A DNA stretch of 64,000 nt, taken from Actinomycetota bacterium. Lineage in GTDB: Bacteria; Actinomycetota; Actinomycetes; S36-B12. The notes beneath the pieces are model-generated. The model was given only the letters and a program-made list of their open reading frames with translations, was not told the origin of the DNA and made no database searches. The DNA lies in contig JAFMFD010000009.1 of the NCBI GenBank assembly GCA_017856385.1, positions 10-64,009 on the forward strand. Direction: 5' to 3'. The translations under genes were made by a program, and so were the position numbers. Positions within the stretch are counted from its first letter, which is position 1. The number at the start of each line of letters is the position of its first letter. Below, one piece after another: positions 14,741 through 42,605 of the stretch.

Positions 14741-16324
14741 TCAGGAGCTGCGCAGGGTGCCGCTGTCGAGAGCGTCACGCAGTGCCTTGCCCGTCTCGTC
14801 CGACAGGGCGAGGGTGCGCAGGTTCTTCAGGCGATGGGCGGCATGCGGGTCGTCGGCCAGCCGCGGCACCGCGTCCATAAGGGCCATGAAGTTCCGCATC
14901 CCGTTCGCGTGGGTCTCGCCGTACCCCTTGACCACCTGCTGGCACTCGACGATCTCGCAGGCGAGGTCGACGTTGCGCGGGGCGTACTCGCGCACCAGGC
15001 CGAGCCAGGCGTCGATCCGGGCCTGCTCCTGGCCGAAGCGCAGGGAGCGCCGACGGATCGGCTGCATCCGGGCGAGGAAGTACAGCACGGTGTAGCCCCA
15101 GAACGACGTCGTCTGGATCTTGATGCCCTTGTGCGTGACCCGGTGGATGAGGCGGTTCATCACCTTGGAGTTGAGCAGCCACCGGCCCAGGGCCGTCGGC
15201 ATGGTGTCGGAGATCTCCTCGACCTGCGGGTGGAGGTACTCGCGGATCTGCACCATCTGGGCGTCGTCGGCCCGCGCCTCCTCGGTGCGAATCCGGTCGA
15301 AGCGGCGGGCGCGGACCTTGTGGAAGGCGACCCGGATGGTGTCCTCGTACGTCATCCACAGTGCGGTGTAGCGGGCGGCCTCGGTGGTGAGCCGGTGGTC
15401 GGCCGAGGTGTCGAGGGACGCGACGGAGCCGACGCGATCGAGGTACTCGTCGGCGTACGCCACGTCCTGGTACTCGGCGGTGCGCTTGATGCCCTCGACG
15501 AGCACGAGCCGCGACTCGACCGTCATCTGGGCGATGCGCGCGGCCTGCGACTTCAGGCGGGAGCCGACGAGCGATGCCGGGTCCTGTTGCGCCTGGCGCA
15601 GCACCTGGGGATCGGGGGCATTCGGATCGGGTGGGCGCACCCCGATCTGAATGTCGACCGCGGGCGGGGCGGCGGCGACCCGGAAGCCCTCGCCGAAGGC
15701 CCGCAGGCTGGGCTCGACGCCCTTGCCGCCGGCCCGGATGGCGTCCTCGAACTGCTCGCGGGTGAAGGGCAGCACAGCGGCGCCGGCGATGGCGCCGAAG
15801 AGCACCGCGCTGATCACGCTGCCGGTCTGGTCGGCGATGCGGCCGAAGTCGCCGCGGATGAAGCGCCTGCTCGAGCCCTCGGCGGCGGCGATCAGCTCCG
15901 CGGAGTCGATGCGGCCCTCGCCCATCGCGGTGCGCTCGGGCATCGCATAGGTGCGGCTGGTCGAGCCGATGAGGGTGGTGCGGTCGGGGGTGGCGAAGCC
16001 GCGGAGCACCGAGCGGCCGGCCTCCATCAGCTCGGAGGCCACGACGATGTCGACCTCGCCGGGCGTCGGCATGGTGCCGAGGACGGGGTACCGGCCGTTA
16101 CTGCCGGCCCTGGGCAGCAGTTCGACGTAGTAGACCGTGGCGCCAGTGCGCTGGGCGACGCCGGGCACCGAAGTGCTCTGCGCGAACCAGTCGTTGTCCT
16201 CCGCGAGCGCGACGATCCAGTCGGCGAGCACGCCGCCGCCCTCACCGCCCATCGCGAGGATCGCCATCGTGATGGGCCGCGTCAGGGCAGGGGTGGCGGG
16301 CCGCTCCGGCGCCTCGGCGGTCAT
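14741..16324 (-). CDS. iorB: indolepyruvate ferredoxin oxidoreductase subunit beta family protein (long bacterial form)
   Basis: MTAEAPERP...ITMAILAMGGEGGGVLADWIVALAEDNDWFAQSTSVPGVAQRTGATVYYVELLP (pyruvate/ketoisovalerate oxidoreductase gamma-type domain). ATGA overlap with iorA. Confidence 0.8.
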   Translation of the reverse strand: MTAEAPERPATPALTRPITMAILAMGGEGGGVLADWIVALAEDNDWFAQSTSVPGVAQRTGATVYYVELLPRAGSNGRYPVLGTMPTPGEVDIVVASELMEAGRSVLRGFATPDRTTLIGSTSRTYAMPERTAMGEGRIDSAELIAAAEGSSRRFIRGDFGRIADQTGSVISAVLFGAIAGAAVLPFTREQFEDAIRAGGKGVEPSLRAFGEGFRVAAAPPAVDIQIGVRPPDPNAPDPQVLRQAQQDPASLVGSRLKSQAARIAQMTVESRLVLVEGIKRTAEYQDVAYADEYLDRVGSVASLDTSADHRLTTEAARYTALWMTYEDTIRVAFHKVRARRFDRIRTEEARADDAQMVQIREYLHPQVEEISDTMPTALGRWLLNSKVMNRLIHRVTHKGIKIQTTSFWGYTVLYFLARMQPIRRRSLRFGQEQARIDAWLGLVREYAPRNVDLACEIVECQQVVKGYGETHANGMRNFMALMDAVPRLADDPHAAHRLKNLRTLALSDETGKALRDALDSGTLRSS

Positions 16325-18486
16325 GCGGAGATCCCCTCGAGCCGACGCTCGATGCCGCGCTGGAGGAAGCCGATCCACCGGGTGCGGAACCACTGCTTGG
16401 TGCGGTCCCAGCGGGTGGGATTGCTGATGATCTCGGTTCGGTAGAAGGACGGGCACAGTGCAGCGGCGTGCGCGTTCTCACCGCAGAGGCCGCAGCCGAC
16501 GCAGCTGCTGGTGACGGTGGCGATCGGGTCCTTGCGCAGCGGATCGGGGTTGTCGGTGATCGTCAGCGACGGGCAGCCGGAGATGCGGATGCAGGAGTGA
16601 TCGCCGGTGCAGGTGTCGGGGTCGACGCCGAAACGCTCGCGCACGACGCGCTTGCCGTCCTTGATCGCCTTGGCCATCGCCGGCTTCTCGCGGCGCATCC
16701 GGTTGAGGGTGCACTCGCTCTGGGCGACGATGACCTTCGGGCCCTTCTCCGGGGTCGTGAGCGCCTCCTTGAACAGGTCGCGCATCTCGTCGACCTTGAA
16801 GGTGTTCGTCATCGTGCGGGCCCACTTGACGCCCACGCCGCGCACGGCCTTCTCGATCGGGTGCTTCAGGGAGCGGTTACGCGACTCGCCCTTGGAGGAG
16901 AGCACATCCTGGCCGCCGGTGGCCGCGCTGTAGTTGTTGTCGACGATCACGAGGAGCTGATCGTTCTCGTTGAACACGGCATTGCCGACGCCGCTGGTCA
17001 GGCCGTTGTGCCAGAAGCCGCCGTCGCCCATGACGGCGATCGGACGGCTCATCGCACCGCTGCCGTTGAGTGCCGAGGCGGCGGCCGAGCCCAGCCCGTA
17101 GCCCATCGTGGTGGCGCCGATGTTGAACGGCGGATTGATGGAGAACAGGTGGCAGCCGATGTCGGCGCTCACGTAGTGCTCCCCGACCTCGCGCTGGGCG
17201 AGCGTCAGCGCGGCGAAGATCGGCCGTTCGGGGCACCCGGTGCAGAAGCCCGGGGGGCGCCCCTGCACGAGCTCGGGCTTGATGCGGGGCGCGAAGGGGC
17301 TGCGCGGGTCGTCATGGGGGAGTGTCACGACCGGGGCCTGCCGATCCGCGATCAGGTGCGGGGCGTACTTCGCGATGAAGGCGTGCACGCCCTTCGTCAC
17401 GGCGGCCGGGGTGTACTCGCCGGCGACCGGGAGCAGGTCCTTGCCGTGCAGTTTCGCGGTCGCATCGTTGCGACGCAGGATCGCCTGGATGTTCTGCTCG
17501 ATGTAGTCGGGCTGCCCCTCCTCGACGAGCAGCACCGCACGCTTGCCCTCGCAGAAGCGGACGACCTCGTCGTCGACGACGGGATATGTGACGTTCATGA
17601 TGTAGAGCGGCACCTGGCTGTCGCCGAAGGCATCGGAAAGGCCGAGGAGCTCGAGGGCGCGATTGACGTTGTTGAACAGGCCGCCCTGAAGGATGATGCC
17701 GAAATCGGCGTCCTTCTCCTTGACGAACTCATTGAGCTGGTTGTCCTTGATGTACTTCACGGCAGCGGGCCAGCGCTTGTTCAGCTTCTCCTGCTCGTGG
17801 GCGAAGTTCATCGGCGGCAGCACGATGCGGCTGAGGTCGCGCTCGGGGTTCTCGACCGCCTCGCGCACCGTCATGGACGGGCGCCGGTTGTCCTTGGCGA
17901 TGAAGGATCCGTGCAGGTGGCAGGAGCGCAGGCGCAGCTCGAGGATCACCGGGGTGTTGCTCGCCTCGGAGAGCTCGAACCCCTTCTCGACCATGTCGAC
18001 GATCGCCGTCAGGTTGGGGCGCGGGTCGAGCAGCCACATCTGCGACTTCATCGCGAAGGCGTGCGTGCGCTCCTGCATGATGCTGGAGCCCTCGCCGTAG
18101 TCCTCACCGATGATGACGAGGGCGCCGCCCCGTACCCCGCCTGAGGCGAGGTTTGCGAGAGCATCAGACGCGACGTTGAACCCCACGGTGGACTTGAAGG
18201 TGACCGCGCCGCGCAGGGGGTAGTGGACGGAGGCGCCCAGCATGGCGCCGGCGGTGGCCTCGGACGCGCTGTTCTCGAAGTAGATGCCGAGCTCGGAGAG
18301 GATGTCCTGGGCATCGCCGAGGACATCCATCAGGTGGGAGATCGGAGCGCCCTGGTAGCCGCCCACGTACGCGACGCCGGACTGCAGGAGTGCCTTGGTG
18401 ACGGCGAGGATGCCCTCGCCCCGGAACTCCTCGCCCGCGCCCAGCCTGAGCTCCTGGACCTCGGCGGCGAATGAGCGCTCAGCCAT
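16321..18486 (-). CDS. iorA: indolepyruvate ferredoxin oxidoreductase subunit alpha (ThDP, 4Fe-4S)
   Basis: GILAVTKALLQSGVAYVGGYQGAPISHL..., ThDP motif GDGGFWHNG...VDNNYSAATGGQ, C-terminal ferredoxin-like Cys clusters CTGDHSCIRISGCP and CVGCGLCGE...LCP. Confidence 0.85.
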   Translation of the reverse strand: MAERSFAAEVQELRLGAGEEFRGEGILAVTKALLQSGVAYVGGYQGAPISHLMDVLGDAQDILSELGIYFENSASEATAGAMLGASVHYPLRGAVTFKSTVGFNVASDALANLASGGVRGGALVIIGEDYGEGSSIMQERTHAFAMKSQMWLLDPRPNLTAIVDMVEKGFELSEASNTPVILELRLRSCHLHGSFIAKDNRRPSMTVREAVENPERDLSRIVLPPMNFAHEQEKLNKRWPAAVKYIKDNQLNEFVKEKDADFGIILQGGLFNNVNRALELLGLSDAFGDSQVPLYIMNVTYPVVDDEVVRFCEGKRAVLLVEEGQPDYIEQNIQAILRRNDATAKLHGKDLLPVAGEYTPAAVTKGVHAFIAKYAPHLIADRQAPVVTLPHDDPRSPFAPRIKPELVQGRPPGFCTGCPERPIFAALTLAQREVGEHYVSADIGCHLFSINPPFNIGATTMGYGLGSAAASALNGSGAMSRPIAVMGDGGFWHNGLTSGVGNAVFNENDQLLVIVDNNYSAATGGQDVLSSKGESRNRSLKHPIEKAVRGVGVKWARTMTNTFKVDEMRDLFKEALTTPEKGPKVIVAQSECTLNRMRREKPAMAKAIKDGKRVVRERFGVDPDTCTGDHSCIRISGCPSLTITDNPDPLRKDPIATVTSSCVGCGLCGENAHAAALCPSFYRTEIISNPTRWDRTKQWFRTRWIGFLQRGIERRLEGISA

Positions 18487-18561
18487 GCCTGCCTCCCGTC
18501 ACCGACTCATGATGGAGGAGTGCCCGCCGCGGTGCAATGTGACCTGCGCTACCCCCGGGGG

Positions 18562-19674
18562 TCACCCGACGTCCTGGTGCCCGCCCGTGGCTCCGTACTC
18601 CTCCTCGGCGTGCAGGGCGAGCGAGGTGATCATCGGGAAGTCATTGAACGAGAACAGGAAGGCCGGGTTGTCGGGATCGTCGTTGGCGTGCTCGTGCCAG
18701 GCCCAGGACGGCACGCAGAAGATGTCGTGCTCCTGCCAGTCGAACCGCGTCCCGGCGATGATCGAGTGCCCGCGCCCCTCGGCCACGTGGTAGACGACCG
18801 AGCCGGTGTGCCGGTGGGCCTTGGTCGCCTGCCCGGGCTTGAGCATCTGCATGTGCGCGCCCATGGTGGGCATCACCGAGCCGCCGGTCACCGGGTTGAC
18901 GTACTCCATGATCACGCCGTCGTAGTCGGTGCCGTCGCTGACTCGGCCGAGGTTGACGAGCGCCTCGCGCGTCTGCGCCCATGGGTAGCCCAGGAGCGGG
19001 GAGTAGGCCTTGGTCCAGGTGCGCCGGTCCGGCTTCAGGATGCCGCTCCCGTGCGTGAGGATCGACGTGTTGGGCACTCGTCCGGGCACCTGGTAGAGGT
19101 CCGGATGGACCTCGTAGAAGTTCGCGTCGAGGGCGTTGACGAGCGGAATGTCGAGGCCGTCCTGCCAGATGACGAAGTTGTCGGAGGCCTCGTTGCCGTG
19201 CTCGTGCCAGGTGCCGTTCGGGGTAATGGCGAAGTCGTTCGGCCCGACCACGAGCCGGTCGCCATCGACGATGGTCCAGGCGCCCGTGCCCTCGATGACG
19301 AACCTCAGGGCGGAGGCGGCATGCCGGTGGGCGGTCATCGACTCGCCCGGGTTCATGATCTGGATGCCGCTGTAGAGCAGCCCCACCGCGGCCTTGACGT
19401 CCTTGCGCTCGTCGTTGACGAGGTAGACGACCCGGCGGCCGGCGTCATCGCCCTGGACCAGTGAGGCCGACTCCACGACGAGGGGCCGCATCTCCGAGTA
19501 GCGCCACAGCATGGGGATGGACCGGGGCTGGGGGTACCACGGCTCGATCTCGTTGGCGACGGTCCACAGCGCCCCGGTGCCCAGCTTCTCGAGCCGTGCG
19601 TAGTACTCCTCCAGCTCGGGGGTTTCGGCGACGCGCGCCCGCCCGATCGCCGAGTCGTCCATCTGTCGTGTCAT
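18562..19674 (-). CDS. gentisate 1,2-dioxygenase-family bicupin ring-cleavage dioxygenase
   Basis: N-terminal ELEEYYARLEKLGTGALWTV..., first cupin GESMTAHRHAASALRFVIEG (HRH metal site), second cupin GQATKAHRHTGSVVYHVAEG...WHEH. Confidence 0.8.
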   Translation of the reverse strand: MTRQMDDSAIGRARVAETPELEEYYARLEKLGTGALWTVANEIEPWYPQPRSIPMLWRYSEMRPLVVESASLVQGDDAGRRVVYLVNDERKDVKAAVGLLYSGIQIMNPGESMTAHRHAASALRFVIEGTGAWTIVDGDRLVVGPNDFAITPNGTWHEHGNEASDNFVIWQDGLDIPLVNALDANFYEVHPDLYQVPGRVPNTSILTHGSGILKPDRRTWTKAYSPLLGYPWAQTREALVNLGRVSDGTDYDGVIMEYVNPVTGGSVMPTMGAHMQMLKPGQATKAHRHTGSVVYHVAEGRGHSIIAGTRFDWQEHDIFCVPSWAWHEHANDDPDNPAFLFSFNDFPMITSLALHAEEEYGATGGHQDVG

Positions 19675-19764
19675 CGCAGCCTCGCCCGCTCACGTCCCGA
19701 TTACCCGGGTGAGCCTACTGCCCGGCCTGAGCGGGTGCTACGGTCCGACCGTCGAAAGCGAGCC

Positions 19765-20787
19765 ATGGACTATCCCCGATTCCGGGCCGCAGCCGTGCAG
19801 GCCGCGCCCGTCTTCCTCGACACCGATGCGACCGTCGACAAGGCGTGCTCCCTGATCGCCGAGGCGGCCACCGCCGGCGCGCAGCTGGTCGTCTTCCCCG
19901 AGGTGTTCGTGCCCGGGTACCCGTACTGGAACTGGACGATGACCCCCATCGCCGGCAGCCCGTGGTTCGAGCGGCTCTTCAAGGCCGCGGTCGACATCCC
20001 GGGCCCGCACATCGACCGCCTGTGCGCCGCCGCACGGGCCGCTGGTGCCTTCGTCGTCATGGGCGTCAATGAGCGCGACCCGTACTCGATGGGCACGCTC
20101 TACAACACGCTGGTCTTCATCTCCGACACGGGCGAGGTGCTGGGGACGCACCGCAAGCTGGTCCCCACCTGGGCCGAGAAGCTCACCTGGGCGGGAGGCG
20201 ACGGCAGCTCGCTGCGCGTGTACGACACGACGATTGGACGTCTGGGCGGCCTCGCCTGCGGTGAGAACACCAACACCCTCGCGCGCTTCGCCCTGCTGGC
20301 GCAGGGCGAGAACGTGCACACCGCCAACTACATCGCCCTCCCCACGGCTCCTGAGGACTACGACATGGTCGAGGCGATCAAGGTGCGCGCGATGGCCCAC
20401 TCGTTCGAGGGCAAGGTGTTCACGGTGGTGTCCTGCTCGGCCCTGACGCCGTCGGTCATCGACGTGGTCGCGCACGATGCTGAGTCCCGGCGGCTGCTCA
20501 GTCGCCGGCACTCTGCCGTGAGCTGCATCGTGGGCCCGGACGGCCGGCTCATCGGGGACGCCCTGATCGACGACGAGGGCATCGTCTATGCCGACATCGA
20601 CCTCAACCGCTGCATCCAGGCCAAGCAGATGCACGACATCATCGGCCATTACAACCGCTTCGACGTGTTCTCGTTGCGAGTCAATCGTCGCCCCGCCACT
20701 GCACTCGCGTTCGAGGACGCGGAGTTCGAGGCGATCACCCGTACGTCAACGCCCGAATCACCCGTGGAATCCCAGCAGGAGGACTAG
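19765..20787 (+). CDS. nitrilase / carbon-nitrogen hydrolase (nitrilase branch)
   Basis: Glu-Lys-Cys triad contexts VVFPEVFVPGYP, THRKLVPTWAEK, GGLACGENTN. About 340 aa with the C-terminal extension typical of true nitrilases. Start set at ATG 19765. Confidence 0.75.
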   Translation: MDYPRFRAAAVQAAPVFLDTDATVDKACSLIAEAATAGAQLVVFPEVFVPGYPYWNWTMTPIAGSPWFERLFKAAVDIPGPHIDRLCAAARAAGAFVVMGVNERDPYSMGTLYNTLVFISDTGEVLGTHRKLVPTWAEKLTWAGGDGSSLRVYDTTIGRLGGLACGENTNTLARFALLAQGENVHTANYIALPTAPEDYDMVEAIKVRAMAHSFEGKVFTVVSCSALTPSVIDVVAHDAESRRLLSRRHSAVSCIVGPDGRLIGDALIDDEGIVYADIDLNRCIQAKQMHDIIGHYNRFDVFSLRVNRRPATALAFEDAEFEAITRTSTPESPVESQQED

Positions 20788-20789
20788 CC

Positions 20790-21692
20790 ATGCGACTGTG
20801 CACTTTCTCGATCGACGCCGACCCCCGGCCGCGACTGGGGGCCTTCGTCGACGAGTCGACGGTCGTCGACCTCGTGACGGGACTGTCGGGTCTCGTCGAC
20901 GTCCCCCCAACCATGATCGACTTCATCAACGCGGGGTCGGTCCTGCACGACGCGGTCCGTGAGGCGCTGGCGTCCACGACCGCTTGGTCGGAGGGCGCGA
21001 CCTTCGACCCGGCAGCCATCCGCCTGCACGCGCCGCTGCGCCCGGGCAAGGTCGTGGGGGTCGGCCTGAACTACGTCGAGCACGTCGAGGAGTCCAGCCG
21101 GACGCTCGACACCGCCAAGGAACTGCCGGATCGGCCTGTGCTGTTCAGCAAGCCCGGCACCGCCATCGTGGGCCCCGACCAGCCGATCCGCCACAATGCG
21201 GCGCTCACGCAGCAGCTGGACTGGGAGTGCGAGCTGGCCGTGGTCATGGGTCGGACTGCGCTGGAGGTCTCCGCCGACGATGCCATGGACTACGTGTTCG
21301 GCTACAGCATCGTCAACGACATCAGCGCCCGCGATCAGCGCCGCTCCGGCCAGTGGTTCTACTCCAAGGGCCAGGACAGCTTCGCGCCCTTCGGGCCAGT
21401 GATCGTCACCGCCGACGAGATCGGCGATCCCCACACCCTGCAGCTCCGGCTGACCGTCAACGGGGACCAGCGGCAGAACGGCAACTCGCGGCACATGCTG
21501 TTCCGGATCCCGGTGCTCATCGCCGACATCACGGCGGGCATGACCCTCGAGCCCGGCGACGTCATCGCGACCGGATCCCCCCAGGGCGTGGGCGCGGCCA
21601 TGGACCCGCCCACCTTCCTGCAGCCCGGTGACGTCGTTGAGTGTTCGATCGAGCGCATCGGGACCCTCCGGAATCCCGTCGTCGCGGTCTGA
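20790..21692 (+). CDS. fumarylacetoacetate hydrolase (FAH) family protein
   Basis: GKVVGVGLNYVEH...VLFSKPGTAIVGP...DWECELAVVMG...GYSIVNDISARD...SKGQDSFAPFGP...GDVIATGSPQGVG. Starts 2 nt after the nitrilase stop. Confidence 0.85.
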   Translation: MRLCTFSIDADPRPRLGAFVDESTVVDLVTGLSGLVDVPPTMIDFINAGSVLHDAVREALASTTAWSEGATFDPAAIRLHAPLRPGKVVGVGLNYVEHVEESSRTLDTAKELPDRPVLFSKPGTAIVGPDQPIRHNAALTQQLDWECELAVVMGRTALEVSADDAMDYVFGYSIVNDISARDQRRSGQWFYSKGQDSFAPFGPVIVTADEIGDPHTLQLRLTVNGDQRQNGNSRHMLFRIPVLIADITAGMTLEPGDVIATGSPQGVGAAMDPPTFLQPGDVVECSIERIGTLRNPVVAV

Positions 21693-21775
21693 TCTGGATA
21701 ACTATCTGCGCAAAGTGGATAGATCCTCGGGCCCGGCTGCCCGATAGTGGCCCTCAGCACCCAGAAGGAGGAGAC

Positions 21776-22876: not shown

Positions 22877-22892
22877 GTGGTAGGCAGGTGAC

Positions 22893-24261: not shown

Positions 24262-24384
24262 GGTTCATCCTCCCGCACGAGGTCGCGATGGGCTCCGGAT
24301 GCCTATCTGCCCGACCAGATATACCGTACTATTGTCGACAGTCACAAATACGCGAGATACTCTGAGGCCGTGAGGGGAGCGCCA

Positions 24385-26793: not shown

Positions 26794-26804
26794 AAGGAAG
26801 TCGC

Positions 26805-27591: not shown

Positions 27592-27612
27592 GGACCTGCA
27601 GGGATCAGGTCC
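27592..27612. terminator. hairpin between convergent genes (possible bidirectional terminator)
   Basis: GGACCTG-cagggat-CAGGTCC, 7-bp stem, overlapping the stop of the minus-strand gene. No U-tract. Confidence 0.3.
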
Positions 27613-36027: not shown

Positions 36028-36028
36028 G

Positions 36029-37579
36029 ATGGATGTCGGTCGCCTGGTCGCTCGCTCGATGTCCCGCTACCGGGACCGCATCGCGCTCATCGGGCCGGAG
36101 GGCGAGAGCACCTTTGGGCGCACGGGCGGGCGCGCCATGCAGCTCGCGCGCGCGCTGCGCAGTCTGGGCCTGGAGACGGGCGACCGCGTACTCGACCTTC
36201 AGTCGAACCAGAACACCTACATCGAGACCGACCTCGGCATCAGCACTGCAGGGCTGTGCCGCGTCGCACTCAACTACCGGCTCCATCCGAGCGACTGGGT
36301 GCGCATCGCCACCGACTGCTCGCCTCGCGCAATGATCCTCGACGCGAAGTTCTGGGATGACACCGCCGACGTGCGCGCGCTCGTCGACCACGTCATCGTC
36401 ATCAATGGCGAAGCGGACGCCATCCCGTACGAGCGTTTCCTCGGAGAGCAGAGCGCGGAGCCGCTGCTGCTGTCGGTGGATCCGGATGCCCTCGTCTCGC
36501 TCAACTACTCCAGTGGGACGACGGGCCGCCCGAAGGGTGCGATCCGCACCCACCGAAACCGCATGGCGAGCCTGCACAACATGATCACCGACTTCTTCGG
36601 CACGGTCCCCGACGATCGCACGACGTGGCTGCACGCCGGCCCGGTCACGCACACCAGCGGACTCTTCGTGCTCCCGTGCTTCACGTTCGGGGCGACCCAG
36701 ATCGTGCATCCATCCTTCGATGCCGAGGCCGTCGTCGATGCGTTCGAGAACCGCGGGGCCACCGGCACCGCGATGGTGCCGACCATGGTGGCGCGACTGC
36801 TCGCCCTGCCCGACATCTCCCGGGAGCGCATGGCGGGCCTGCAGATGCTGGGCTACGCCGGGGCGCCGATGCCGCCCGAGCAGATCCGCCAGTGCTTCGA
36901 CCGCATCACCCCCCACATGGCGCAGTACTACGGGCTGGTCGAGGCGATTCCTCCCGTCACCGTCCTCGGCCCGGACGACCACGCCCGGGGGATCGCTGGC
37001 GATGTCGAGGTCCTCACCAGCGCGGGCATCCCCTGCAACGGGGTCGAGGTCCGCATCGTGGACGAGGCAGGCGTGGATGTGCCGGTCGGCGAGATCGGCG
37101 AGGTCATCACACGCGGCGACCACGTCATGCGCGGCTACTACGGGCAGGCGGCGGAGGAGGCGACCGTGACCAAGACGGTGCGCGACGGCTGGCTCTACAC
37201 CGGAGATCTCGGGCGCGTAGATGCAGACGAGCGGCTGTACCTCGTCGACCGCAAGGGCGACATGATCATCTCCGGCGGCTACAACATCTATCCGCGCGAG
37301 ATCGAGGACGTCATCGCCTCCGTGCCGGGCGTGCATGAGGTTGCCGTCGTGGGCGTGGAGGACGTGGAGTGGGGCCAGCACGTGACCGCGCTGTTCACCG
37401 TCTTGCCCGGCGCCACGGTCACCACGGAGCAGGTGCTCGACCACTGCCGCACGACCATGGCGTCGTACAAGAAGCCCAAGGACATCCGCATCGTGGACGA
37501 GTTCCCGCTGAACTCCACGGGCAAAATCGCCAAGAAGGTGCTGCGCGAGCAACTCAACAAGGAGGCGCGTGGTGAGTGA
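36029..37579 (+). CDS. AMP-forming acyl-CoA ligase (class I adenylate-forming enzyme)
   Basis: A3 motif YSSGTTGRPKG, YGLVE, A8-like GWLYTGDLGRVD...LYLVDRKGDMIISGGYNIYPREIE, C-terminal GKIAKK. Confidence 0.85.
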   Translation: MDVGRLVARSMSRYRDRIALIGPEGESTFGRTGGRAMQLARALRSLGLETGDRVLDLQSNQNTYIETDLGISTAGLCRVALNYRLHPSDWVRIATDCSPRAMILDAKFWDDTADVRALVDHVIVINGEADAIPYERFLGEQSAEPLLLSVDPDALVSLNYSSGTTGRPKGAIRTHRNRMASLHNMITDFFGTVPDDRTTWLHAGPVTHTSGLFVLPCFTFGATQIVHPSFDAEAVVDAFENRGATGTAMVPTMVARLLALPDISRERMAGLQMLGYAGAPMPPEQIRQCFDRITPHMAQYYGLVEAIPPVTVLGPDDHARGIAGDVEVLTSAGIPCNGVEVRIVDEAGVDVPVGEIGEVITRGDHVMRGYYGQAAEEATVTKTVRDGWLYTGDLGRVDADERLYLVDRKGDMIISGGYNIYPREIEDVIASVPGVHEVAVVGVEDVEWGQHVTALFTVLPGATVTTEQVLDHCRTTMASYKKPKDIRIVDEFPLNSTGKIAKKVLREQLNKEARGE

Positions 37580-39062
37580 GGAGCCGGGCCGGTACCCGTA
37601 CACGCGCGGAATCTCCGCCGATCCCGGGGTGTGGACGATGGGCCAGTACGCCGGCTTCGGCACGGCGGCTGAGACCAACGAGCGGTTCAAGTCCCTCCTG
37701 GCGCAGGGCCTCACCGGCTTCAGCGTGGCCCTCGACCTGCCGACACAGATCGGGCTGGACTCCGACAACGCGCTCTCCCGCGGGGAGGTCGGCAAGGTCG
37801 GCGTGGCCATCGACAGCCTCGCCGACATCGAGGTGCTCATGGATGGCATTGAGTTGGAGCGCATCAGCCAGGTGCGCACGACCGCCAACTCCATCGGCTA
37901 CGTGTGGGCCGCCATGTTCGAGGCGCTCGCGGAGAAGCGCGACGTCGATCCCAACGCGTTCGGCATGTTCATCCAGAACGACGTCCTCAAGGAGTACTTC
38001 GCCCGGGGGACGCAGATCTTCCCGGCGGCCGCCGGCCTGAAGCTCTCGGTGGACGTGATCGAGCACGTCGCGCGCCGGATCCCGCGTTGGGTCCCCCTCG
38101 CGATGAGCGGGTACCACATCCGCGAGGCGGGTTCGAGTGCTGTTCAGGAGATCGCGTTCACCTTCGCCAATGCCCGCGCCTACCTCGATGCGGCCACGGC
38201 TCGGGGGCTGTCGGTCGACGACGTCGCGCCGACCCTGTTCACCTTCCTGTCGAGCAACATGGACTTCATGCCGGAGATCGCCAAGTTCCGAGCGGCGCGC
38301 CGGGTGTGGGCCCGCCTGATGCGGGAGACCTACTCGGCTGCGGACCCGCGGTCGGAGCAGTTGCGCATCTTCGTCTTCACCGCCGGCTCGTCGCTGACGG
38401 CCCAGCAGCCGCTCAACAACGTGGTCCGCACGTCCATCGAGGCCCTGGCGGCCGCGCTCGGAGGAGTGCAGACGATGCACGTGTGCGCCTTCGACGAGGC
38501 GCTCGGCGTGCCTACGGAGGCGGCGGCGACCCTGGCCCTTCGCACCCAGCAGATCGTGGCCTTCGAGACCGGCGTCACCGGCCTGGTGGATCCTCTCGGC
38601 GGCAGCTACCTGCTCGAGGCGCTGACCGATCAGCTTGAGCGCGACATCATGGACGAGATGCACCGGATCGAGCAGCGGGGCGGAGCCCTGAACTGCATCG
38701 AGTCGGGCTACTTCGCCAACGCCCTCTCCGACAGCGCATACGAGCAGGCTCTGGCCGTCGACTCCGGCGAGAAGCCGTTGATCGGCGTCAACCGCTTCGT
38801 GTCCGACCCGGTCTCGTTCGAGGTCTTCGGCATCGATCCGGCGAGCGAGCTCGCCCAGGTGGAGTCACTGGCGCGGATCCGAGCCCAGCGCGACGCCGCG
38901 GCGGTCACAGCAGCCCTCGAGGCCCTGCGTGAGGCAGCGGCGGGCGGCGACAACGTGGTGCCCGCGTGCGTGACGGCGGTGCGCAGCTACGCGACGGTGG
39001 AGGAGATCGCTGACGTGCTGCGTTCGGTGTACGGCACGTGGCAGCCGACCAGCGTGTTCTGA
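37569..39062 (+). CDS. coenzyme-B12-dependent acyl-CoA mutase, large (substrate-binding TIM-barrel) subunit, no B12 domain
   Basis: YPYTRGI...WTMGQYAGFGTAAETNERFK...GFSVALDLPTQIGLDSD...GVAIDSLADIE...IQNDVLKEYFARGTQIFP...MSGYHIREAG...SSLTAQQPLNNVVRT is collinear with methylmalonyl/isobutyryl-CoA mutase catalytic domains. GTG start overlaps the ligase stop. Confidence 0.85.
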   Translation: MVSEEPGRYPYTRGISADPGVWTMGQYAGFGTAAETNERFKSLLAQGLTGFSVALDLPTQIGLDSDNALSRGEVGKVGVAIDSLADIEVLMDGIELERISQVRTTANSIGYVWAAMFEALAEKRDVDPNAFGMFIQNDVLKEYFARGTQIFPAAAGLKLSVDVIEHVARRIPRWVPLAMSGYHIREAGSSAVQEIAFTFANARAYLDAATARGLSVDDVAPTLFTFLSSNMDFMPEIAKFRAARRVWARLMRETYSAADPRSEQLRIFVFTAGSSLTAQQPLNNVVRTSIEALAAALGGVQTMHVCAFDEALGVPTEAAATLALRTQQIVAFETGVTGLVDPLGGSYLLEALTDQLERDIMDEMHRIEQRGGALNCIESGYFANALSDSAYEQALAVDSGEKPLIGVNRFVSDPVSFEVFGIDPASELAQVESLARIRAQRDAAAVTAALEALREAAAGGDNVVPACVTAVRSYATVEEIADVLRSVYGTWQPTSVF

Positions 39063-39063
39063 G

Positions 39064-39945
39064 CTAGTCGCGCCGTGCCTCGCACAGCTCGACCACATGC
39101 TTCTGCGCTGCCTGCGCGAGGTGGTCGTGGAACCAGAAGAACAGCTCGGTCGCCGGTCGGCCGGCCCAGTCGCGAGGCAGGTAGGACATCGGCAGCCCGG
39201 GGTCGATGTAGGGCAGCATCCGCCACGACGTGAGCACGCGGGTGTAGTCGACGAAGGCCCGGGTGCCGTCGACCGTGCCCTGGACGCCGGAGTAGGCGGA
39301 GCGCAGCGGCGAGTACGCCCGCACGAAGTCGGTGTAGTGCGCGGAGATCGCATCGAGGTCCCACCAGGCCCGGATCGCCTCCGGTGTCGGACGGAAGGCG
39401 ATGTGCTCGGCTCGGAAGACGTCGACGTAGTCGGTCACGTTGAGGGCCTCGGCCACGTTGCGTACGTCAGCCTCGAGGGCGCGGGGCGCGATCCACAGGC
39501 CGCCGGTGACCTGGGCGAAGCCCACCTTGGCCAGACGTGAGCGGAGCCGATACCGCACGTCGCGGGCGCTTTCGGGGATCGAGAAGGCCGCGAGGACCCA
39601 CCCCTCTTCGCGGGGCAGCTCGCGACGCTCGAGGACGCGGGCGTCGCCGACGTCGAAGGTGCGTCGCGACGCGCTGCTCAGCGCGTAGCCGGCGGTCCGA
39701 TCGCGCTTGTCGGCCACGAGGATCCCGCGCCTCTTGAACCGCGAGAGCGCGCTGCGGACGGCAGGGTCCTCGATGCCCATCTCGCCGAGCAGGCGCAGGA
39801 TCGTGCTGACCGCCAGCCAGCCGCCGAGGGATCGGCTGTAGGCGCCGTAGACGGTGATGAGGAGGGACTGCGGCCTGCTGGCCCGCACGCTGATGTCGCT
39901 GGGCTCGCCGTCGAAGGCGCTGATCTCGAGATCGTCCACGGCCAT
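39064..39945 (-). CDS. paaX: PaaX family transcriptional regulator
   Basis: LLITVYGAYSRSLGGWLAVSTILRLLGEMGIEDPAVRSALSRFKRRGIL (wHTH) ...GGLWIAPR... C-terminal PaaX_C-like WRMLPYIDPGLP. ATG 39945 after GGGGAGA. Confidence 0.75.
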   Translation of the reverse strand: MAVDDLEISAFDGEPSDISVRASRPQSLLITVYGAYSRSLGGWLAVSTILRLLGEMGIEDPAVRSALSRFKRRGILVADKRDRTAGYALSSASRRTFDVGDARVLERRELPREEGWVLAAFSIPESARDVRYRLRSRLAKVGFAQVTGGLWIAPRALEADVRNVAEALNVTDYVDVFRAEHIAFRPTPEAIRAWWDLDAISAHYTDFVRAYSPLRSAYSGVQGTVDGTRAFVDYTRVLTSWRMLPYIDPGLPMSYLPRDWAGRPATELFFWFHDHLAQAAQKHVVELCEARRD

Positions 39946-39958
39946 GCCGATCTCCCCG

Positions 39959-40537
39959 TCAGGCCGGGTCCACGTGGGCGGCACGCATGCGCGCGAACTC
40001 CACGACCTGCTGGCCGACGGTCCGCAACTGCTCGTGCACGGAGGCGTCGGAGACCGCGCCGTCGGCGTCGAAGGACGTGACGGAGGTGTTCACCGCCCCA
40101 CCGAGGGGCGTGGGCCACCCGCGCAGGGCGTGCACGACCTGCCGCAGTTGGTGCAGCGTGGTGACGCATGCCTGCCAGCCGTAGGCGACCGAGATGCACC
40201 CCACCGCCCGGCCGTGCAGGTAGGGCGCCTCGTCCGCGCGGAGGTCCTCGAGGTAGTCGAGCGCGTTCTTCATCATGCCGCTGATGCCGCCGTGGTAGCC
40301 GGGACTGGCGATGAGGAGTCCGTGCGCGGATCGCACCGCCTCGACGAGCTCTGCGGCCTTGGGTGACCGCTCGTCCGTCTCTGTGTCGTAGATCGGCAGG
40401 ATCAGGTCGGTGCTCGTGAACCACGTGATCTCGGCGCCGGCCTCCTCTGCCGCAGCGGCAGCCAGGCGCAGGGCCTTCTCGCTCGATGAGTTCGGCCGGG
40501 TGCTGCCGCCCATGGCGACGATGCGGATCGGGGCCAT
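39959..40537 (-). CDS. NAD(P)H-dependent FMN reductase family protein
   Basis: IRIVAMGGSTRPNSSSEKAL...LLIASPGYHGGISGMMKNALDYL is typical of FMN_red. Confidence 0.8.
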   Translation of the reverse strand: MAPIRIVAMGGSTRPNSSSEKALRLAAAAAEEAGAEITWFTSTDLILPIYDTETDERSPKAAELVEAVRSAHGLLIASPGYHGGISGMMKNALDYLEDLRADEAPYLHGRAVGCISVAYGWQACVTTLHQLRQVVHALRGWPTPLGGAVNTSVTSFDADGAVSDASVHEQLRTVGQQVVEFARMRAAHVDPA

Positions 40538-41151
40538 CAGGTCTGCCCTTCCTGTCGTCCGCGGCGGAGGTCGGAGGTGACCGCGGCAAGCTGGCGGCCC
40601 TGTGCTCGCGCGGCGAGCAGGGCGTCGTCATCGGGAGCCGCACCCTGGCGCGAGACGAAGGACGCTCCGTAGGGATTGCCGGTGACCTTGCGCACGTGGG
40701 TGTCGCGGTATCCGAGCGGCATGATGAGCGAGCCCCAGTGGTAGCAGTGGTTGTTGATGGCCAGAATGGTGGACTCCAGGCCGCCGTGACCGGTCGATGC
40801 GCTCGTGAATGCGGTGCACACCTTGTCGGCGAGAAGACCCTGCGCCCAGAGCCCGCCCGTCGTGTCAAGGAAGGACTTCAGCTGCGCGGCCGGTCCCCCG
40901 AAGCGAGTCGGCGATCCGAGGGCGATGGCGTCGGCCCACGTGAGGTCCTCGAGCGTCGCAGGGTCGTCGGTGTTCGTGTCGACGAACCCACGCCATCGGG
41001 GATTGGCGTCGATGGCAGCCGCCGGCGCGGTCTCGGCAACTGAGTGGACACGGGTCGTCGCTCCTGCCTCGTGTGCACCCTCCGCGATCGCATGAGCGAG
41101 CTTCGCGATGTTGCCCGTCGACGAGTAGTAGATCACGGCGATGTTCGTCAC
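40537..41151 (-). CDS. wrbA: NAD(P)H:quinone oxidoreductase, WrbA-type flavodoxin-like protein
   Basis: IAVIYYSSTGNIAKLAHAIAEGA...DAIALGSPTRFGGPAAQLKSFLD...STGHGGLESTIL. GTGA overlap with the AraC-family gene and a 1-nt TGATG junction with the FMN reductase gene. Confidence 0.8.
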   Translation of the reverse strand: MTNIAVIYYSSTGNIAKLAHAIAEGAHEAGATTRVHSVAETAPAAAIDANPRWRGFVDTNTDDPATLEDLTWADAIALGSPTRFGGPAAQLKSFLDTTGGLWAQGLLADKVCTAFTSASTGHGGLESTILAINNHCYHWGSLIMPLGYRDTHVRKVTGNPYGASFVSRQGAAPDDDALLAARAQGRQLAAVTSDLRRGRQEGQT

Positions 41152-42101
41152 CGGAACCGCTCTCGCAGCAGGGTGGTCGACGGCTTCTCGCCGAAGCGGG
41201 CGCGGTACTGCACGGAGAAGCGGCCAAGGTGCGTGAAGCCGCAGTCGTAGGCGACCGCTGCCACGGTGGTCGTGCGGGATTCGGCGGCGCGCAGGCGATG
41301 GTGGGCATCCATGAGCCGAACGTCGCGCAGCAGTTGCGAGGGGGTCATGCCGAGCTCGTCATGGACGATCTGCTGGAGCTGCCTCAGGCTCAGGCCGACA
41401 CCACGGGCGATGTCGGTGGTCGTCACGTCGAGACCGTGGTTGCAGCGCACCCAGTCGAGGATGTGCGCTGCCCGTCCGCGTGCGGTGGGCACGTTCCGCG
41501 TGGGCGACCAGGCCAGCACGAGCGCGCTCATGAGCATGTCGTCGAGGGCGTGCGCGAGCGAGGCGACGACGGCAGCGGGCGTCTCGGCTGGCAGCGTGGT
41601 GGTCACGGTCCAGATCTGCCGGCACGCGCGTTCGATCGCGCGGGGTGCGGCGAGTGCCTGTGGATCCGGGTCGATGACGTGCTCGGGACCGAGCACGTCA
41701 GTGGCATGCGCGGCGATGCGGATCGGGTCGCTCGAGACGACGAGCGCTCCTGCGAGCGGATCGGGGTCCATCAGCGTGCTGCACTCCTGGCCCAGGACGA
41801 CCGTCGCGGTGTCGCGCGAGCCGGGCCTGCGGTCGCCGTAGCGCACACCCATGGGGCCGAGCGGCACCGTCGCCACGATCCGGTCGCCGGTGGGCGGCGC
41901 CTCGACCTCCACCTGCCCGCCGTACTTCACGAACACCATGCGCGACTCGGGCAGGGCCAGCACCCCGACCGTCCCGTCGAGTCCGTCGGTGCGGGGTGTC
42001 ACCTCATGGGGTGTGGTGTAGGCAGCGACCTCGTCGCGCAGGGTGCCTCGCTGCCGGGTGTGCACCCAGGACCAGACGGGTGAGTCCACGCTGCCGCGCA
42101 T
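41148..42101 (-). CDS. AraC family transcriptional regulator
   Basis: C-terminal double HTH: [41 protein letters not shown]...[29 protein letters not shown]. Confidence 0.85.
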
Positions 42102-42191
42102 GCCCTCACTCTAGTGCAGTTTCGACGATCGCCACCAAGGTGTCAGACGTCGGTGGGTACGATCGAACAGTCCGATGTGAAGGGAGTCCTC

Positions 42192-42605
42192 GTGGAGTCA
42201 CGGGTCAGGATTGTGGTCGCCAAGCCGGGGCTCGACGGCCACGACCGGGGTGCCAAGGTCATCGCCCGGACGCTGCGTGACGCGGGCTTCGAGGTCGTCT
42301 ACACCGGCCTGCGGCAGACACCGGCCCAGATCGTCGAGGCAGCACTCCAGGAGGACGCCGACCTCATCGGACTGTCGATCCTCTCCGGCGCCCACATGAC
42401 CCTCTTCGCGGAGGTGCTCGACCTCCTGCGGGAGCGCGATGCGAGCGACATTGTGGTCTTCGGGGGAGGCATCATCCCCGACGACGACATCCCGCGGCTG
42501 CTCGACATGGGGGTCGCCGCGATCTTCACCCCCGGCACGCCCACGCAGGACGTGGTGGCGTGGGTGCAGGAGCAGGCCGCGGTGTCAGCCGCCCGGCGCA
42601 CGTAG
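42192..42605 (+). CDS. cobalamin-binding small subunit of acyl-CoA mutase (B12-binding domain protein)
   Basis: GTG 42192 after [37 protein letters not shown] (DxHxxG), GLSILSG (SxL), VVFGGGIIP (GG). Confidence 0.85.

Follow-up and report, generated by a model that had tools for sequence, protein, structure and literature searches.

A putative vertically inherited catabolic supercluster for indole-derived compounds in freshwater Nanopelagicales Actinomycetota

The stretch of DNA analysed here (the window) comprised 64,000 nucleotides of contig JAFMFD010000009.1 from an Actinomycetota bacterium (assembly GCA_017856385.1) and contained, between positions 14741 and 42605, a catabolic gene cluster with an orthologue of isatin hydrolase, two CrtI/CrtO-like FAD oxidoreductases (FADox1 and FADox2) and a divergent IorAB-type 2-oxoacid:acceptor oxidoreductase at its centre. 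Genes were called by third-position GC content (GC3), the GC content of the window being 67-73% throughout, and families were assigned via Pfam and NCBIfam profile searches of the called proteins (Table 1). Nearly every family named in a preliminary description of this region was recovered by these means at 14.7-42.6 kb. The earlier inventory lacked the two flavoproteins, which are core members, as well as the luciferase-like monooxygenase with its flavin reductase and the block of FMN reductase, WrbA and AraC genes. The functional unit probably extends to the left, to about 8.6 kb, and includes a thioesterase and an LIV-type ABC transporter.

Table 1. Features called in the cluster and to its left, with the evidence for each assignment
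Feature	Position	Strand	Evidence
4HBT-type acyl-CoA thioesterase, likely member	8612-9076	+	Pfam 4HBT_2
LIV-type binding protein	9230-10519	+	Pfam, GC3
Gene from GC3 only, no family scan	~10520-11216	+	GC3 frame
LIV-type ATPase	11216-11971	+	Pfam
LIV-type permeases	11968-12849 and 12846-13907	+	Pfam
Unassigned open reading frame	~13.9-14.7 kb		GC3 frames
IorB-type beta subunit, 2-oxoacid:acceptor oxidoreductase	14741-16324	-	NF006179 655 bits, cutoff 348
IorA-type thiamine pyrophosphate (TPP) alpha subunit	16321-18486	-	TIGR03336 282 bits, cutoff 650.9
Gentisate-1,2-dioxygenase-type bicupin	18562-19674	-	PDB 3bu7, gentisate 1,2-dioxygenase, 498 bits
Branch-1 nitrilase (CN hydrolase)	19735-20787	+	Pfam CN_hydrolase; NitA 6zby 230 bits
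Fumarylacetoacetate-hydrolase-family (FAH) hydrolase	20790-21692	+	Pfam FAA_hydrolase 245 bits
Luciferase-like FMN monooxygenase	21641-22876	+	Pfam
Flavin reductase	22893-23507	+	Pfam
Short-chain dehydrogenase (SDR) SDR1	23494-24261	-	Pfam; beside ACMR-like gene
Bifunctional FAD monooxygenase/OYE reductase (ACMR-like; 2-aminobenzoyl-CoA monooxygenase-reductase / salicylyl-CoA 5-hydroxylase type)	24370-26742	+	PF01494 and PF00724
Isatin hydrolase orthologue (cyclase family, IadI type)	26802-27578	+	PDB matches, active site, 36/36 loci
FADox1, CrtI/CrtO-like FAD oxidoreductase	27605-29173	-	Pfam, NCBIfam
FADox2, paralogous CrtI/CrtO-like FAD oxidoreductase	29239-30774	+	Pfam, NCBIfam
MenB/BadI-family crotonase (putative retro-Dieckmann ring hydrolase)	30771-31568	-	2iex MenB 300 bits
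Thiolase, closest to 3-oxoadipyl-CoA thiolase models	31565-32737	-	Pfam; pcaF model 412 bits, below 597
SDR2	32826-33593	+	Pfam
RidA-family imine/enamine deaminase	33590-33988	+	Pfam
Fused ADP-forming (NDP-forming superfamily) acyl-CoA synthetase	33985-36027	+	Pfam domain set; NCBIfam all below cutoff
AMP-forming acyl-CoA ligase	36029-37579	+	Pfam
B12-dependent acyl-CoA mutase, large (substrate-binding) subunit	37572-39062	+	PF01642 569 bits
PaaX-family regulator	39064-39945	-	three PaaX Pfam domains
FMN reductase	39959-40537	-	Pfam
WrbA quinone reductase	40537-41151	-	Pfam; NF002999 163 bits, cutoff 141
AraC regulator	41148-42101	-	Pfam
B12-binding small subunit of mutase	42153-42605	+	PF02310; TIGR00640 168 bits, cutoff 57

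FADox1 was chosen as the query of the synteny survey because of its central place in the region. The genome scan revealed 77 actinobacterial loci (60-91% identity) and three proteobacterial ones. Almost all of the 77 came from metagenome-assembled genomes (MAGs) labelled Candidatus Nanopelagicales, Planktophila or acI, and the complete 1.40-Mb chromosome of actinobacterium SCGC AAA044-D11 was among them. All window proteins were compared by tblastn with the surveyed loci (labelled by L-numbers below), and co-occurrence was counted over the 36 actinobacterial loci of at least 15 kb, with a GC content of 42-65%, for genes within 10 kb of FADox1. The isatin hydrolase was found in 36/36 loci, FADox2 in 35, the ACMR-like monooxygenase/reductase in 31, SDR1 in 28 (65-84% identity), IorA in 24 and the crotonase in 21. 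The thiolase-to-mutase block was present in 11-12 of the loci (mutase 11, thiolase 12) and the bicupin/nitrilase/FAH/luciferase-like block in 6-8 (bicupin 6), while thioesterase homologues lay within the cluster in 16. The invariant core consisted of the two CrtI/CrtO-like flavoproteins, the isatin hydrolase orthologue and the divergent IorAB. Ten contigs carrying the cluster at 60-91% identity (L010, L012, L013, L015, L016, L024, L028, L051, L053 and L065) bore the titles 'Bifidobacterium breve', 'Bifidobacteriaceae', 'Rubrivirga' or 'Rubricoccaceae', which are probably taxonomic mislabels or binning errors.

As the genes recurred together in dozens of independent genomes, their co-location is far beyond chance. 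The preliminary description had proposed a comparison of synteny in related genomes and had allowed for sub-clusters with no co-occurrence; the recurrence of the gene set across the 36 loci excludes such a mosaic. The region is nevertheless modular, and four modules with differing phylogenetic distributions were distinguished: M1 (FADox2, FADox1, isatin hydrolase, IorA and IorB), M2 (the bifunctional monooxygenase/reductase, SDR1, the MenB/BadI-like crotonase, RidA, SDR2, the thioesterase and PaaX), M3 (bicupin, nitrilase and FAH) and M4 (thiolase, ADP- and AMP-forming ligases and the B12 mutase). The word 'island', used earlier for the region, does not hold in the mobile sense. GC content was flat along the window (0.67-0.73) with no compositional break, the window gave no tRNA in a tRNA scan and no match in an Rfam scan, no Pfam match to integrase or transposase families was obtained among the window proteins scanned, and the synteny was common to relatives; the region is thus not a mobile island.

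The closest relatives (L011, L012, L014, L015 and L028) were collinear with the window from the bicupin through to the mutase. The 1.4-Mb acI genome carried a compact cluster in the order PaaX, thioesterase, FADox2, FADox1, hydrolase, IorA, IorB, ACMR-like, SDR1 and crotonase, and the 10-kb range gave no homologue of a CoA ligase. In L071, the mutase block directly abutted FADox2, with the cyclase-family hydrolase and IorAB next. IorAB and the ACMR-like gene occurred without mutase, thiolase or ligase within 10 kb in 19 of the 36 loci, and linkage of the ACMR-like gene to the isatin hydrolase and IorAB was seen in 19/36 loci and in Tsukamurella. M1 and M2 co-occurred over lineages of 42-69% GC and across phyla, and parts of the gene set recurred in Tsukamurella, roseobacters, sphingomonads and Burkholderiales. 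One cultured genome joining M1 and M2 in a single locus was that of Tsukamurella tyrosinosolvens, whose plasmid 13 had the order AraC, SDR, FADox, FADox, IorB, IorA, cyclase, CN hydrolase, MFS, ACMR-like, ligase, thioesterase, cupin, FAH, RidA and PaaX. The same five-gene core, with separate orthologues of both flavoproteins and a MarR gene, was found in Tritonibacter mobilis. The cyclase, IorA and IorB genes of Sphingomonas Root720 were contiguous and co-directional and adjoined a FADox1 homologue, a Rieske oxygenase and an ACMR-like gene, and the order in Ralstonia was ACMR-like, SDR, MarR, crotonase, acyl-CoA dehydrogenase, anthranilate-CoA ligase, thioesterase and RidA. A pair of genes absent from the window, for a third FAD oxidoreductase and an SDR, accompanied the core in L091 (3870-6258) and in L019, L039, L040, L041, L043 and L078, with 46-61% identity between Tsukamurella and several acI loci.

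The cyclase-family hydrolase of M1 was matched by phmmer to PDB 5nnb (LaIHA; E=6.4e-88), to 5nmp, deposited as 'Isatin hydrolase' (9e-87), and to IH-B (3e-81), and 4j0n was also matched. All seven LaIHA residues (His69, His73, Asp75, His79, Asp193, His207 and Gln219), taken from the published list of metal (Mn)-binding and catalytic residues (PMC6117287), were kept in the phmmer alignment to 5nnb. By these sequence comparisons the protein is assigned as an isatin hydrolase orthologue. It had been placed earlier in the family of kynurenine formamidase and isatin hydrolase; the latter name stood, whereas the former was dropped, since all strong PDB matches were isatin hydrolases and the PDB search returned no chain named kynurenine formamidase at E<=1e-3. 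The two flavoproteins gave only a distant match in PDB, to CrtI (4dgk for FADox1). Orthologues of FADox1 adjoined the isatin hydrolase in acI, Tsukamurella, Tritonibacter, Sphingomonas, Neorhizobium and Brucella, and the separate FADox2 orthologue of Tritonibacter shared 45% identity.

The remaining part of the core, IorAB, is encoded by two genes whose stop (IorA) and start (IorB) overlap as ATGA. IorB was 38-58% identical to its partners at other loci. IorA was 73% identical to the Tsukamurella protein and 58-68% identical to those of Proteobacteria, and its identity to annotated iorA of anaerobes was no higher than 27%; the comparison gave 58-68% for Variovorax-plasmid and 60-64% for alphaproteobacterial IorA, the chromosomal Variovorax iad locus lying outside it. 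A tblastn search of 72,556 plasmid records revealed 52 records at 51-73%, followed by a gap down to at most 27%. An isatin-hydrolase homologue was located on the same replicon in about 40 of these 52 records, in at least 19 of them within 3 kb, and in Novosphingobium the two genes were 10-16 bp apart. As IorA missed the TIGR03336 cutoff (282 bits versus 651) and shared no more than 27% identity with iorA of anaerobes, a canonical indolepyruvate:ferredoxin oxidoreductase (IOR) was rejected, and the window IorAB is assigned on sequence to a distinct orthogroup.

IorAB had been described as converting arylpyruvate to arylacetyl-CoA, and both the low score of IorA and the linkage to the hydrolase fit isatinate better. 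We consider it about an even chance that the substrate is isatinate (2-aminophenylglyoxylate) and the product 2-aminobenzoyl-CoA. This role is favoured over the arylpyruvate one because the hydrolase and IorAB are adjacent at the operon level, because the window and the compact acI cluster are without an anthranilate-CoA ligase orthologue, unlike clusters fed by free anthranilate, because a Variovorax locus pairs IorAB of the same group with mandelate-type genes, and because there is a precedent in PadEFGHI, which converts phenylglyoxylate to benzoyl-CoA (PMC5109826). The Variovorax locus, on V. boronicumulans plasmid NZ_CP138497.1 (L096; 16998-27574), encodes an IorA (58% identity) and an IorB (41%) that fall into the orthogroup of the window proteins. 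Behind them come genes for a binding protein, an alpha-hydroxy-acid oxidase and LIV permeases and ATPases, and one annotated 'enolase C-terminal domain-like'. The last gene looks mandelate-racemase-like and the locus looks like a mandelate to phenylglyoxylate (arylglyoxylate-producing) context, in which the pathway would lead to an aroyl-CoA and bypass benzoylformate decarboxylase. Another 7 kb along, the plasmid has a gene for an indoleacetamide hydrolase. Plasmid 3 of Variovorax sp. PBS-H4 (L097; 10001-12349) and five sibling linuron-degrader plasmids carry an IorA 68% identical to that of the window, aligned in two pieces, bracketed by IS1071 copies and with no IorB annotated adjacent; it looks like an isolated captured remnant and is uninformative.

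The ACMR-like protein of M2 passed NF006101 (1176.6 bits, cutoff 1078), an equivalog named salicylyl-CoA 5-hydroxylase, and was 60-62% identical to proteins encoded on pAL1, pRLCBG43 and the Tsukamurella plasmid. On pAL1 and pRLCBG43 these genes sit downstream of quinaldine and alkylquinolone degradation genes, together with a PaaX-type regulator, RidA, FAH, cupin, thioesterases and an AMP ligase. The quinaldine and alkylquinolone pathways yield anthranilate, the Arthrobacter pAL1 ligase was identified experimentally as an anthranilate-CoA ligase, and Arthrobacter yielded anthraniloyl-CoA, hydroxyanthraniloyl-CoA and a CoA ester, C7H8O4, taken tentatively for cyclohexanedione-carboxyl-CoA (PMC3534580). 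RidA, SDR2-like, crotonase and thioesterase genes recurred beside the ACMR-like gene in Ralstonia, Sphingomonas and pAL1. RidA was 50-52% identical to that of pAL1, SDR2 was 42-47% identical to the SDR encoded directly 3' of the ACMR-like gene in Ralstonia and Sphingomonas, and the thioesterase, a likely member outside the coordinates of the preliminary description, was 35-36% identical to those beside the ACMR-like genes on pAL1 and pRLCBG43. The crotonase scored below both cutoffs (339 bits versus 380 for the MenB model and 306 versus 468 for the BadI model); it was 77-94% identical across loci and its linkage persisted despite rearrangements. The best match in the window to the confirmed pAL1 ligase was 29%, and an anthranilate-CoA ligase orthologue is therefore absent from the window; such orthologues were present at 52-53% in L045, L072, L076 and L090, the range of true orthologues being 52-62%.

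PaaX proteins classically sense arylacetyl-CoA, and this function had been ascribed to the regulator of the window. Its family was confirmed, with a TIGR02277 score of 141 bits lying below the cutoff of 265. It is 38-39% identical to two pAL1 PaaX-type regulators, which adjoin the genes of the confirmed anthranilate-CoA ligase, and for that reason the ligand need not be arylacetyl-CoA.

In M3, the bicupin scored 308 bits on TIGR02272 (cutoff 442) and the FAH hydrolase was 40-45% identical to the pAL1-type FAH. The luciferase-like monooxygenase and flavin reductase adjoined FAH in 8 of the 36 loci. An orthologous trio of nitrilase (64%), bicupin (59%) and FAH (52%) was found beside IorAB on the Ruegeria pomeroyi DSS-3 megaplasmid NC_006569.1 (L099; 110630-144717), with the nitrilase gene placed between IorAB and the bicupin. 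This locus contains a complete iadCDEFGHIJ-type operon and, 20 kb from it, the genes for MarR, MarR, thioesterase, IorB and IorA, which are faced by those for an aldehyde dehydrogenase, an aminotransferase, the CN hydrolase, the bicupin, FAH, an Asp/Glu racemase-family protein, which may be maleate-isomerase-like, and a TTT transporter. The R. pomeroyi bicupin may be the protein crystallised as 3bu7. The 'nitrilase-related' gene of Tsukamurella gave no match to the window nitrilase and was rejected as its orthologue, that being the R. pomeroyi gene. A sequence of indole, isatin, anthranilate and gentisate was observed earlier, the step from anthranilate to gentisate being unassigned (PMC6221969), and the layout of M3 beside IorAB could explain it.

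The B12-dependent mutase of M4 matched best to HcmA in PDB (4r3u, E=1e-136). Its motifs GQYAGF, YFARGT and SGYH aligned with 1req and 2xij as the equivalents of Tyr89, Arg207 and Tyr243-His244 (P. shermanii numbering). At the positions which we take to determine the specificity of HcmA, the window enzyme has Tyr and Arg and the HcmA row Ile and Gln. Because the residues of the methylmalonyl-CoA mutase (MCM) type are kept, the substrate probably bears a carboxylate or similar group beside the migrating centre. The protein fell below the methylmalonyl-CoA mutase equivalog (NF006944, 463 bits, cutoff 876), and MeaB, epimerase and propionyl-CoA carboxylase were found nowhere among the window proteins scanned. 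Identity to cultured homologues was 45-51%, the nearest being that of Brevibacillus (51%), which adjoins methylmalonyl-CoA epimerase and carboxyltransferase genes. Many relatives were found at 78-88% identity, in the same operon in every context examined, with CoA ligase, SDR, RidA, thiolase and crotonase as partners. From SDR2 through RidA and the two CoA ligases (ADP- and AMP-forming) to the mutase, successive reading frames overlap or abut, and M4 stays linked to M1 in two gene orders, those of the window and L071; on these grounds the mutase probably serves this pathway. It may be a plain methylmalonyl-CoA mutase acting on a C3 product, an arylsuccinyl-CoA mutase, or a mutase converting 4-oxopimelyl-CoA to 2-methyl-3-oxoadipyl-CoA for the PcaF-like thiolase, the last being conjecture. 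The mutase subunits of L005 are neighboured by malic enzyme and sucCD-like genes.

The AMP-forming ligase of M4 was 29% identical to the confirmed pAL1 ligase, as against 52-62% for true orthologues, and 27% identical to Roseibium IadF, and was rejected as an anthranilate-CoA ligase. The fused ADP-forming ligase is presumably similar to PauA-type pimeloyl-CoA synthetase, which would suit a C7 dicarboxylate. The block of FMN reductase, WrbA and AraC genes was kept in L005, L020, L026 and L045.

The cluster was further compared with the known systems that it resembles. Isatin and isatinate are intermediates in the degradation of indole-3-acetate (IAA) and of indole to anthranilate (PMC9613470, PMC12633357, PMC12852158, PMC6221969). 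The auxin-degrading iad locus of Variovorax and Bradyrhizobium (iadA-iadN and iadR), known also from Roseibium and Ruegeria, comprises iadA/iadB (IorA/IorB), iadCDE (Rieske monooxygenase), iadF (AMP ligase), iadG (thiolase), iadH/iadJ (SDRs), iadI (cyclase) and iadK (binding proteins), and converts IAA to anthranilate, with dioxindole, isatin and isatinic acid as intermediates (PMC9613470, PMC12852158, PMC12633357). A canonical iadCDEFGHIJ operon is present at the Roseibium and R. pomeroyi loci. The window shares with the iad locus a LIV-type binding protein, an IadI-type cyclase (52% identity), the Roseibium/Labrenzia IadI proteins being the crystallised isatin hydrolases, and IorA/IorB-type genes, which were likened via the iadA/iadB gene lists of the papers and not by sequence. 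It differs in having two CrtI/CrtO-like flavoproteins instead of the Rieske IadCDE, PaaX and AraC regulators instead of MarR, and a fusion to an anthraniloyl-CoA lower pathway. Roseibium IadC, IadD and IadE gave no tblastn match in the window or in any actinobacterial locus, and matched only Sphingomonas L088. The AMP ligase, thiolase and SDRs of the window were rejected as IadF, IadG and IadH (27% for IadF, no match for IadG and IadH).

The likeness to the aerobic 2-aminobenzoyl-CoA pathway (abm of Azoarcus evansii; Arthrobacter pAL1 and Rhodococcus pRLCBG43 type) extends to the monooxygenase/OYE reductase (60-62%), RidA (about 50%), FAH (40-45%), the thioesterase (about 36%) and the PaaX-type regulator (38-39%). 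In contrast to that pathway, the window is without an anthranilate-CoA ligase orthologue (29%), the proposed entry being IorAB and not a ligase; it has a bicupin in place of a small monocupin, is without a type-II acyl-CoA thioesterase, and adds the MenB/BadI-like crotonase, thiolase and B12 mutase. With the phenylglyoxylate:acceptor oxidoreductase PadEFGHI of Azoarcus/Aromatoleum, IorAB would share the type of reaction, arylglyoxylate and CoA to aroyl-CoA and CO2 (PMC5109826); the two are likened by reaction only, as the window enzyme is of the two-subunit IorAB type with a 2-amino substrate proposed. The anaerobic iaa pathway of Aromatoleum (IaaB, IaaL, IaaGH, IaaF) also has a split B12 acyl-CoA mutase in a cluster converging on 2-aminobenzoyl-CoA (PMC8360864), whereas the window is without IaaF-, IaaL- and hydantoinase-like genes and its mutase is accessory, occurring in 11/36 loci; a Pfam scan of proteins from the 64-kb window revealed no domain of an IaaF-type acyl-CoA dehydrogenase (Acyl-CoA_dh), an IaaL-type CoA transferase (CoA_transf_3) or a hydantoinase. 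Split methylmalonyl-CoA mutase and the 2-hydroxyisobutyryl-CoA mutase HcmAB resemble the window mutase in the split architecture, the best PDB match (HcmA) and the MCM-type residues kept; the window mutase differs in its 45-51% identity to cultured homologues, in having no MeaB, epimerase or carboxylase nearby and in lying inside an aromatic catabolic operon. From these comparisons the cluster appears to fuse part of an iad-type isatin route to an anthraniloyl-CoA pathway, with flavoproteins replacing the Rieske front end and a B12 mutase block added, a combination not found in the literature searched. The search found no work joining isatin hydrolase with anthraniloyl-CoA, nor Nanopelagic* with indolepyruvate.

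On balance, the evidence tips slightly towards a catabolic supercluster for indole-derived compounds that freshwater Nanopelagicales Actinomycetota have inherited vertically. The preliminary description is supported in its general idea that compounds of the indole or anthranilate type are degraded as CoA thioesters in an oxygen-dependent route, and from families and linkage we infer the following substrates and order of steps. Both flavoproteins of M1 would oxidise a C8 indolinone-type precursor, or its hydrolysis product, at the C3/benzylic carbon. Candidate substrates are dioxindole (giving isatin), oxindole and 2-aminomandelate (giving isatinate), and the two paralogues may serve two enantiomers or form a heteromer. 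The hydrolase would open the lactam to isatinate, and IorAB would convert isatinate and CoA by oxidative decarboxylation to 2-aminobenzoyl-CoA and CO2, with no anthranilate-CoA ligase needed. In M2, 2-aminobenzoyl-CoA would be 5-hydroxylated and reduced by the monooxygenase/reductase, RidA would speed the deamination of the enamine, the MenB/BadI-family crotonase would open the beta-keto ring hydrolytically, and PaaX probably senses an aroyl-CoA. M3 could be an alternative aromatic branch converting a gentisate- or 5-hydroxyanthranilate-type product to C4 and pyruvate, and M4 would complete the breakdown of the C7 chain that ring opening leaves, the mutase acting on a substrate with a carboxylate or carbonyl beta to the migrating thioester.

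A bolder proposal joins two new functions, namely that IorAB is an isatinate (arylglyoxylate):acceptor oxidoreductase making 2-aminobenzoyl-CoA without ATP and that the mutase is a gamma-ketoacyl-CoA mutase converting 4-oxopimelyl-CoA to 2-methyl-3-oxoadipyl-CoA; that both should hold together is a long shot. 4-Oxopimelyl-CoA would be the expected product of a BadI-type ring opening of the deaminated monooxygenase/reductase product, and the PcaF-like thiolase could split 2-methyl-3-oxoadipyl-CoA into succinyl-CoA and propionyl-CoA. To our knowledge, the steps after ring reduction in the aerobic anthraniloyl-CoA pathway are undescribed.

Other explanations of the same genes were weighed. The mutase could belong to an iaa-like route, in which tryptophan or indolepyruvate would be converted by a canonical IorAB to indoleacetyl-CoA, then via a 2-oxindole derivative and the cyclase to (2-aminophenyl)succinyl-CoA, and by an IaaGH-like B12 mutase and beta-oxidation (crotonase, SDR, thiolase) to 2-aminobenzoyl-CoA. 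The mutase keeps equivalents of the carboxylate-binding Tyr89 and Arg207, which would suit an arylsuccinyl-CoA, its gene is always in one operon with CoA ligase, SDR, RidA, thiolase and crotonase genes, and PaaX is classically an arylacetyl-CoA sensor; the aminotransferase beside IorAB in R. pomeroyi and an IpdC/PPDC-like decarboxylase encoded at 3146-4780 would agree, and the iaa pathway itself is described (PMC8360864). It was by this analogy that the mutase had been interpreted in the preliminary description. The analogy is not borne out, as no IaaF-, IaaL- or hydantoinase-type protein was present among those scanned in the window, the 19 loci with IorAB and the ACMR-like gene do without mutase, thiolase and ligase within 10 kb, the cyclase has the full isatin-hydrolase active site, IorA is not a canonical IOR, and the nearest cultured mutase homologue (51%) lies in a methylmalonyl-CoA epimerase/carboxyltransferase context. 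An iaa-like route is thus unlikely.

Hydroxylases of the SdgC type provide a precedent in Streptomyces for a route from salicylate to gentisate, which the ACMR-like protein as a salicylyl-CoA 5-hydroxylase, the AMP ligase, the gentisate-dioxygenase-type bicupin and FAH would form here, leaving the hydrolase, IorAB and the FAD oxidoreductases to a separate neighbouring pathway. The name of the NF006101 equivalog, the closeness of the bicupin to 3bu7, deposited as gentisate 1,2-dioxygenase, and the presence of an FAH-family hydrolase all agree with it. We nevertheless regard it as quite improbable, given that the closest annotated-plasmid relatives of the ACMR-like gene (60-62%) lie downstream of genes for the anthranilate-yielding quinaldine and alkylquinolone pathways, beside a confirmed anthranilate-CoA ligase, that the deaminase RidA is a constant partner, and that the gene is tied to isatin hydrolase and IorAB in 19/36 loci and Tsukamurella, as opposed to 6/36 loci for the bicupin. 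A chance neighbourhood of independent operons for unrelated substrates, with a housekeeping methylmalonyl-CoA mutase among them, would account for the different distribution of the modules (M3 in 6-8/36 and M4 in 11-12/36 loci), the MCM-type active site and MCM context of the nearest cultured homologue, and the malic enzyme and sucCD-like genes beside the mutase subunits in L005. It is hard to reconcile with M1 and M2 occurring together across 42-69% GC lineages and phyla, with the link between M4 and M1 surviving two gene orders, with the position of M3 beside IorAB being shared by the window and R. pomeroyi (52-64% identity), and with the overlapping or abutting frames from SDR2 to the mutase, and was considered very unlikely.

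Several points weigh against the reading of the region as an indole-catabolic supercluster with IorAB acting on isatinate. We know of no documented indolinone activity for CrtI/CrtO-like flavoproteins, and of no demonstrated place for the mutase in any anthraniloyl-CoA pathway. The preference of the ACMR-like protein for 2-aminobenzoyl-CoA over salicylyl-CoA is a context-based assignment. As orthology of the AMP ligase, thiolase and SDRs to IadF, IadG and IadH was rejected, nothing ties the cluster to IAA itself. The aminotransferase and aldehyde dehydrogenase that adjoin IorAB in R. pomeroyi would suit a canonical arylpyruvate role too. In Variovorax, nine genes, iadC to iadK2, restore anthranilate formation without iadAB (PMC9613470, PMC12852158, PMC12633357), and IorAB is therefore not required there for the formation of free anthranilate. 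A term search of papers on iad loci found no role assigned to iadA/iadB (iorAB).

On the left of the cluster, the LIV-type transporter at 9230-13907 would belong to it: homologues of the binding protein (36-43%) adjoin the core in L071, L080 and L089. The binding proteins gave only weak, generic LIV-type matches in PDB. Farther upstream lie two TPP enzymes, one at 3146-4780, closest to indolepyruvate/phenylpyruvate decarboxylase models (303 bits, cutoff 554), and one at 5241-6929, which passed PRK05858 'acetolactate synthase' (706 versus 587) and resembles 2-hydroxyacyl-CoA lyase and oxalyl-CoA decarboxylase. An arylglyoxylate/arylpyruvate decarboxylase upstream could be an alternative exit, from isatinate to 2-aminobenzaldehyde.

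On the right, directly 3' of the B12-binding subunit, an open reading frame of 306 aa (42732-43652) with high GC3 was called in both overlapping contig copies (L003 and L004) and had no Pfam or NCBIfam match. A separate putative amide-catabolic cluster follows (43668-55141), with a LuxR-type regulator and an LIV-type ABC transporter, the binding protein of which (44837-46216) matched best to 3h5l in PDB. It also encodes an N,N-dimethylformamidase beta-subunit-like protein (50115-52412, DMFA2_C), and the permease gene upstream of this has a DMF_alpha domain by precomputed call. Next come genes for a histone-deacetylase-family amidohydrolase (52416-53525) and for a protein of the Amidohydro_3 family (53522-55141). 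Genes of C1 metabolism neighbour the formamidase-like cluster: a formate-dehydrogenase-like molybdopterin oxidoreductase fused to NuoG-type Fe-S domains (56518-59670, 1050 aa) and a formate-tetrahydrofolate ligase (62084-63748).

The gene context across three bacterial classes points iorAB (iadA/iadB) to the conversion of isatinate to 2-aminobenzoyl-CoA. If correct, this role would supply the link from isatin hydrolase to anthraniloyl-CoA and explain the presence of iadAB in auxin-degradation loci. The cluster places side by side an isatin hydrolase, an acyl-CoA-forming oxidoreductase, a 5-hydroxylating monooxygenase/reductase, a gentisate-dioxygenase-type dioxygenase and FAH. The CrtI/CrtO-like flavoproteins and the B12 mutase, which are without a known role in this chemistry, may be new enzymes, and should the functions proposed for IorAB and the mutase both be true, the aerobic anthraniloyl-CoA pathway would with them be complete, in bacteria that are among the most abundant in fresh water. 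Cultured and partly tractable carriers of the modules exist in Tsukamurella tyrosinosolvens NCTC13231, Tritonibacter mobilis F1926 and Ruegeria pomeroyi DSS-3. The retention of the core in the genome-streamlined acI/Nanopelagicales would imply that indole-type compounds, such as auxin catabolites and algal or bacterial signals, are a selected source of carbon and nitrogen in lakes.

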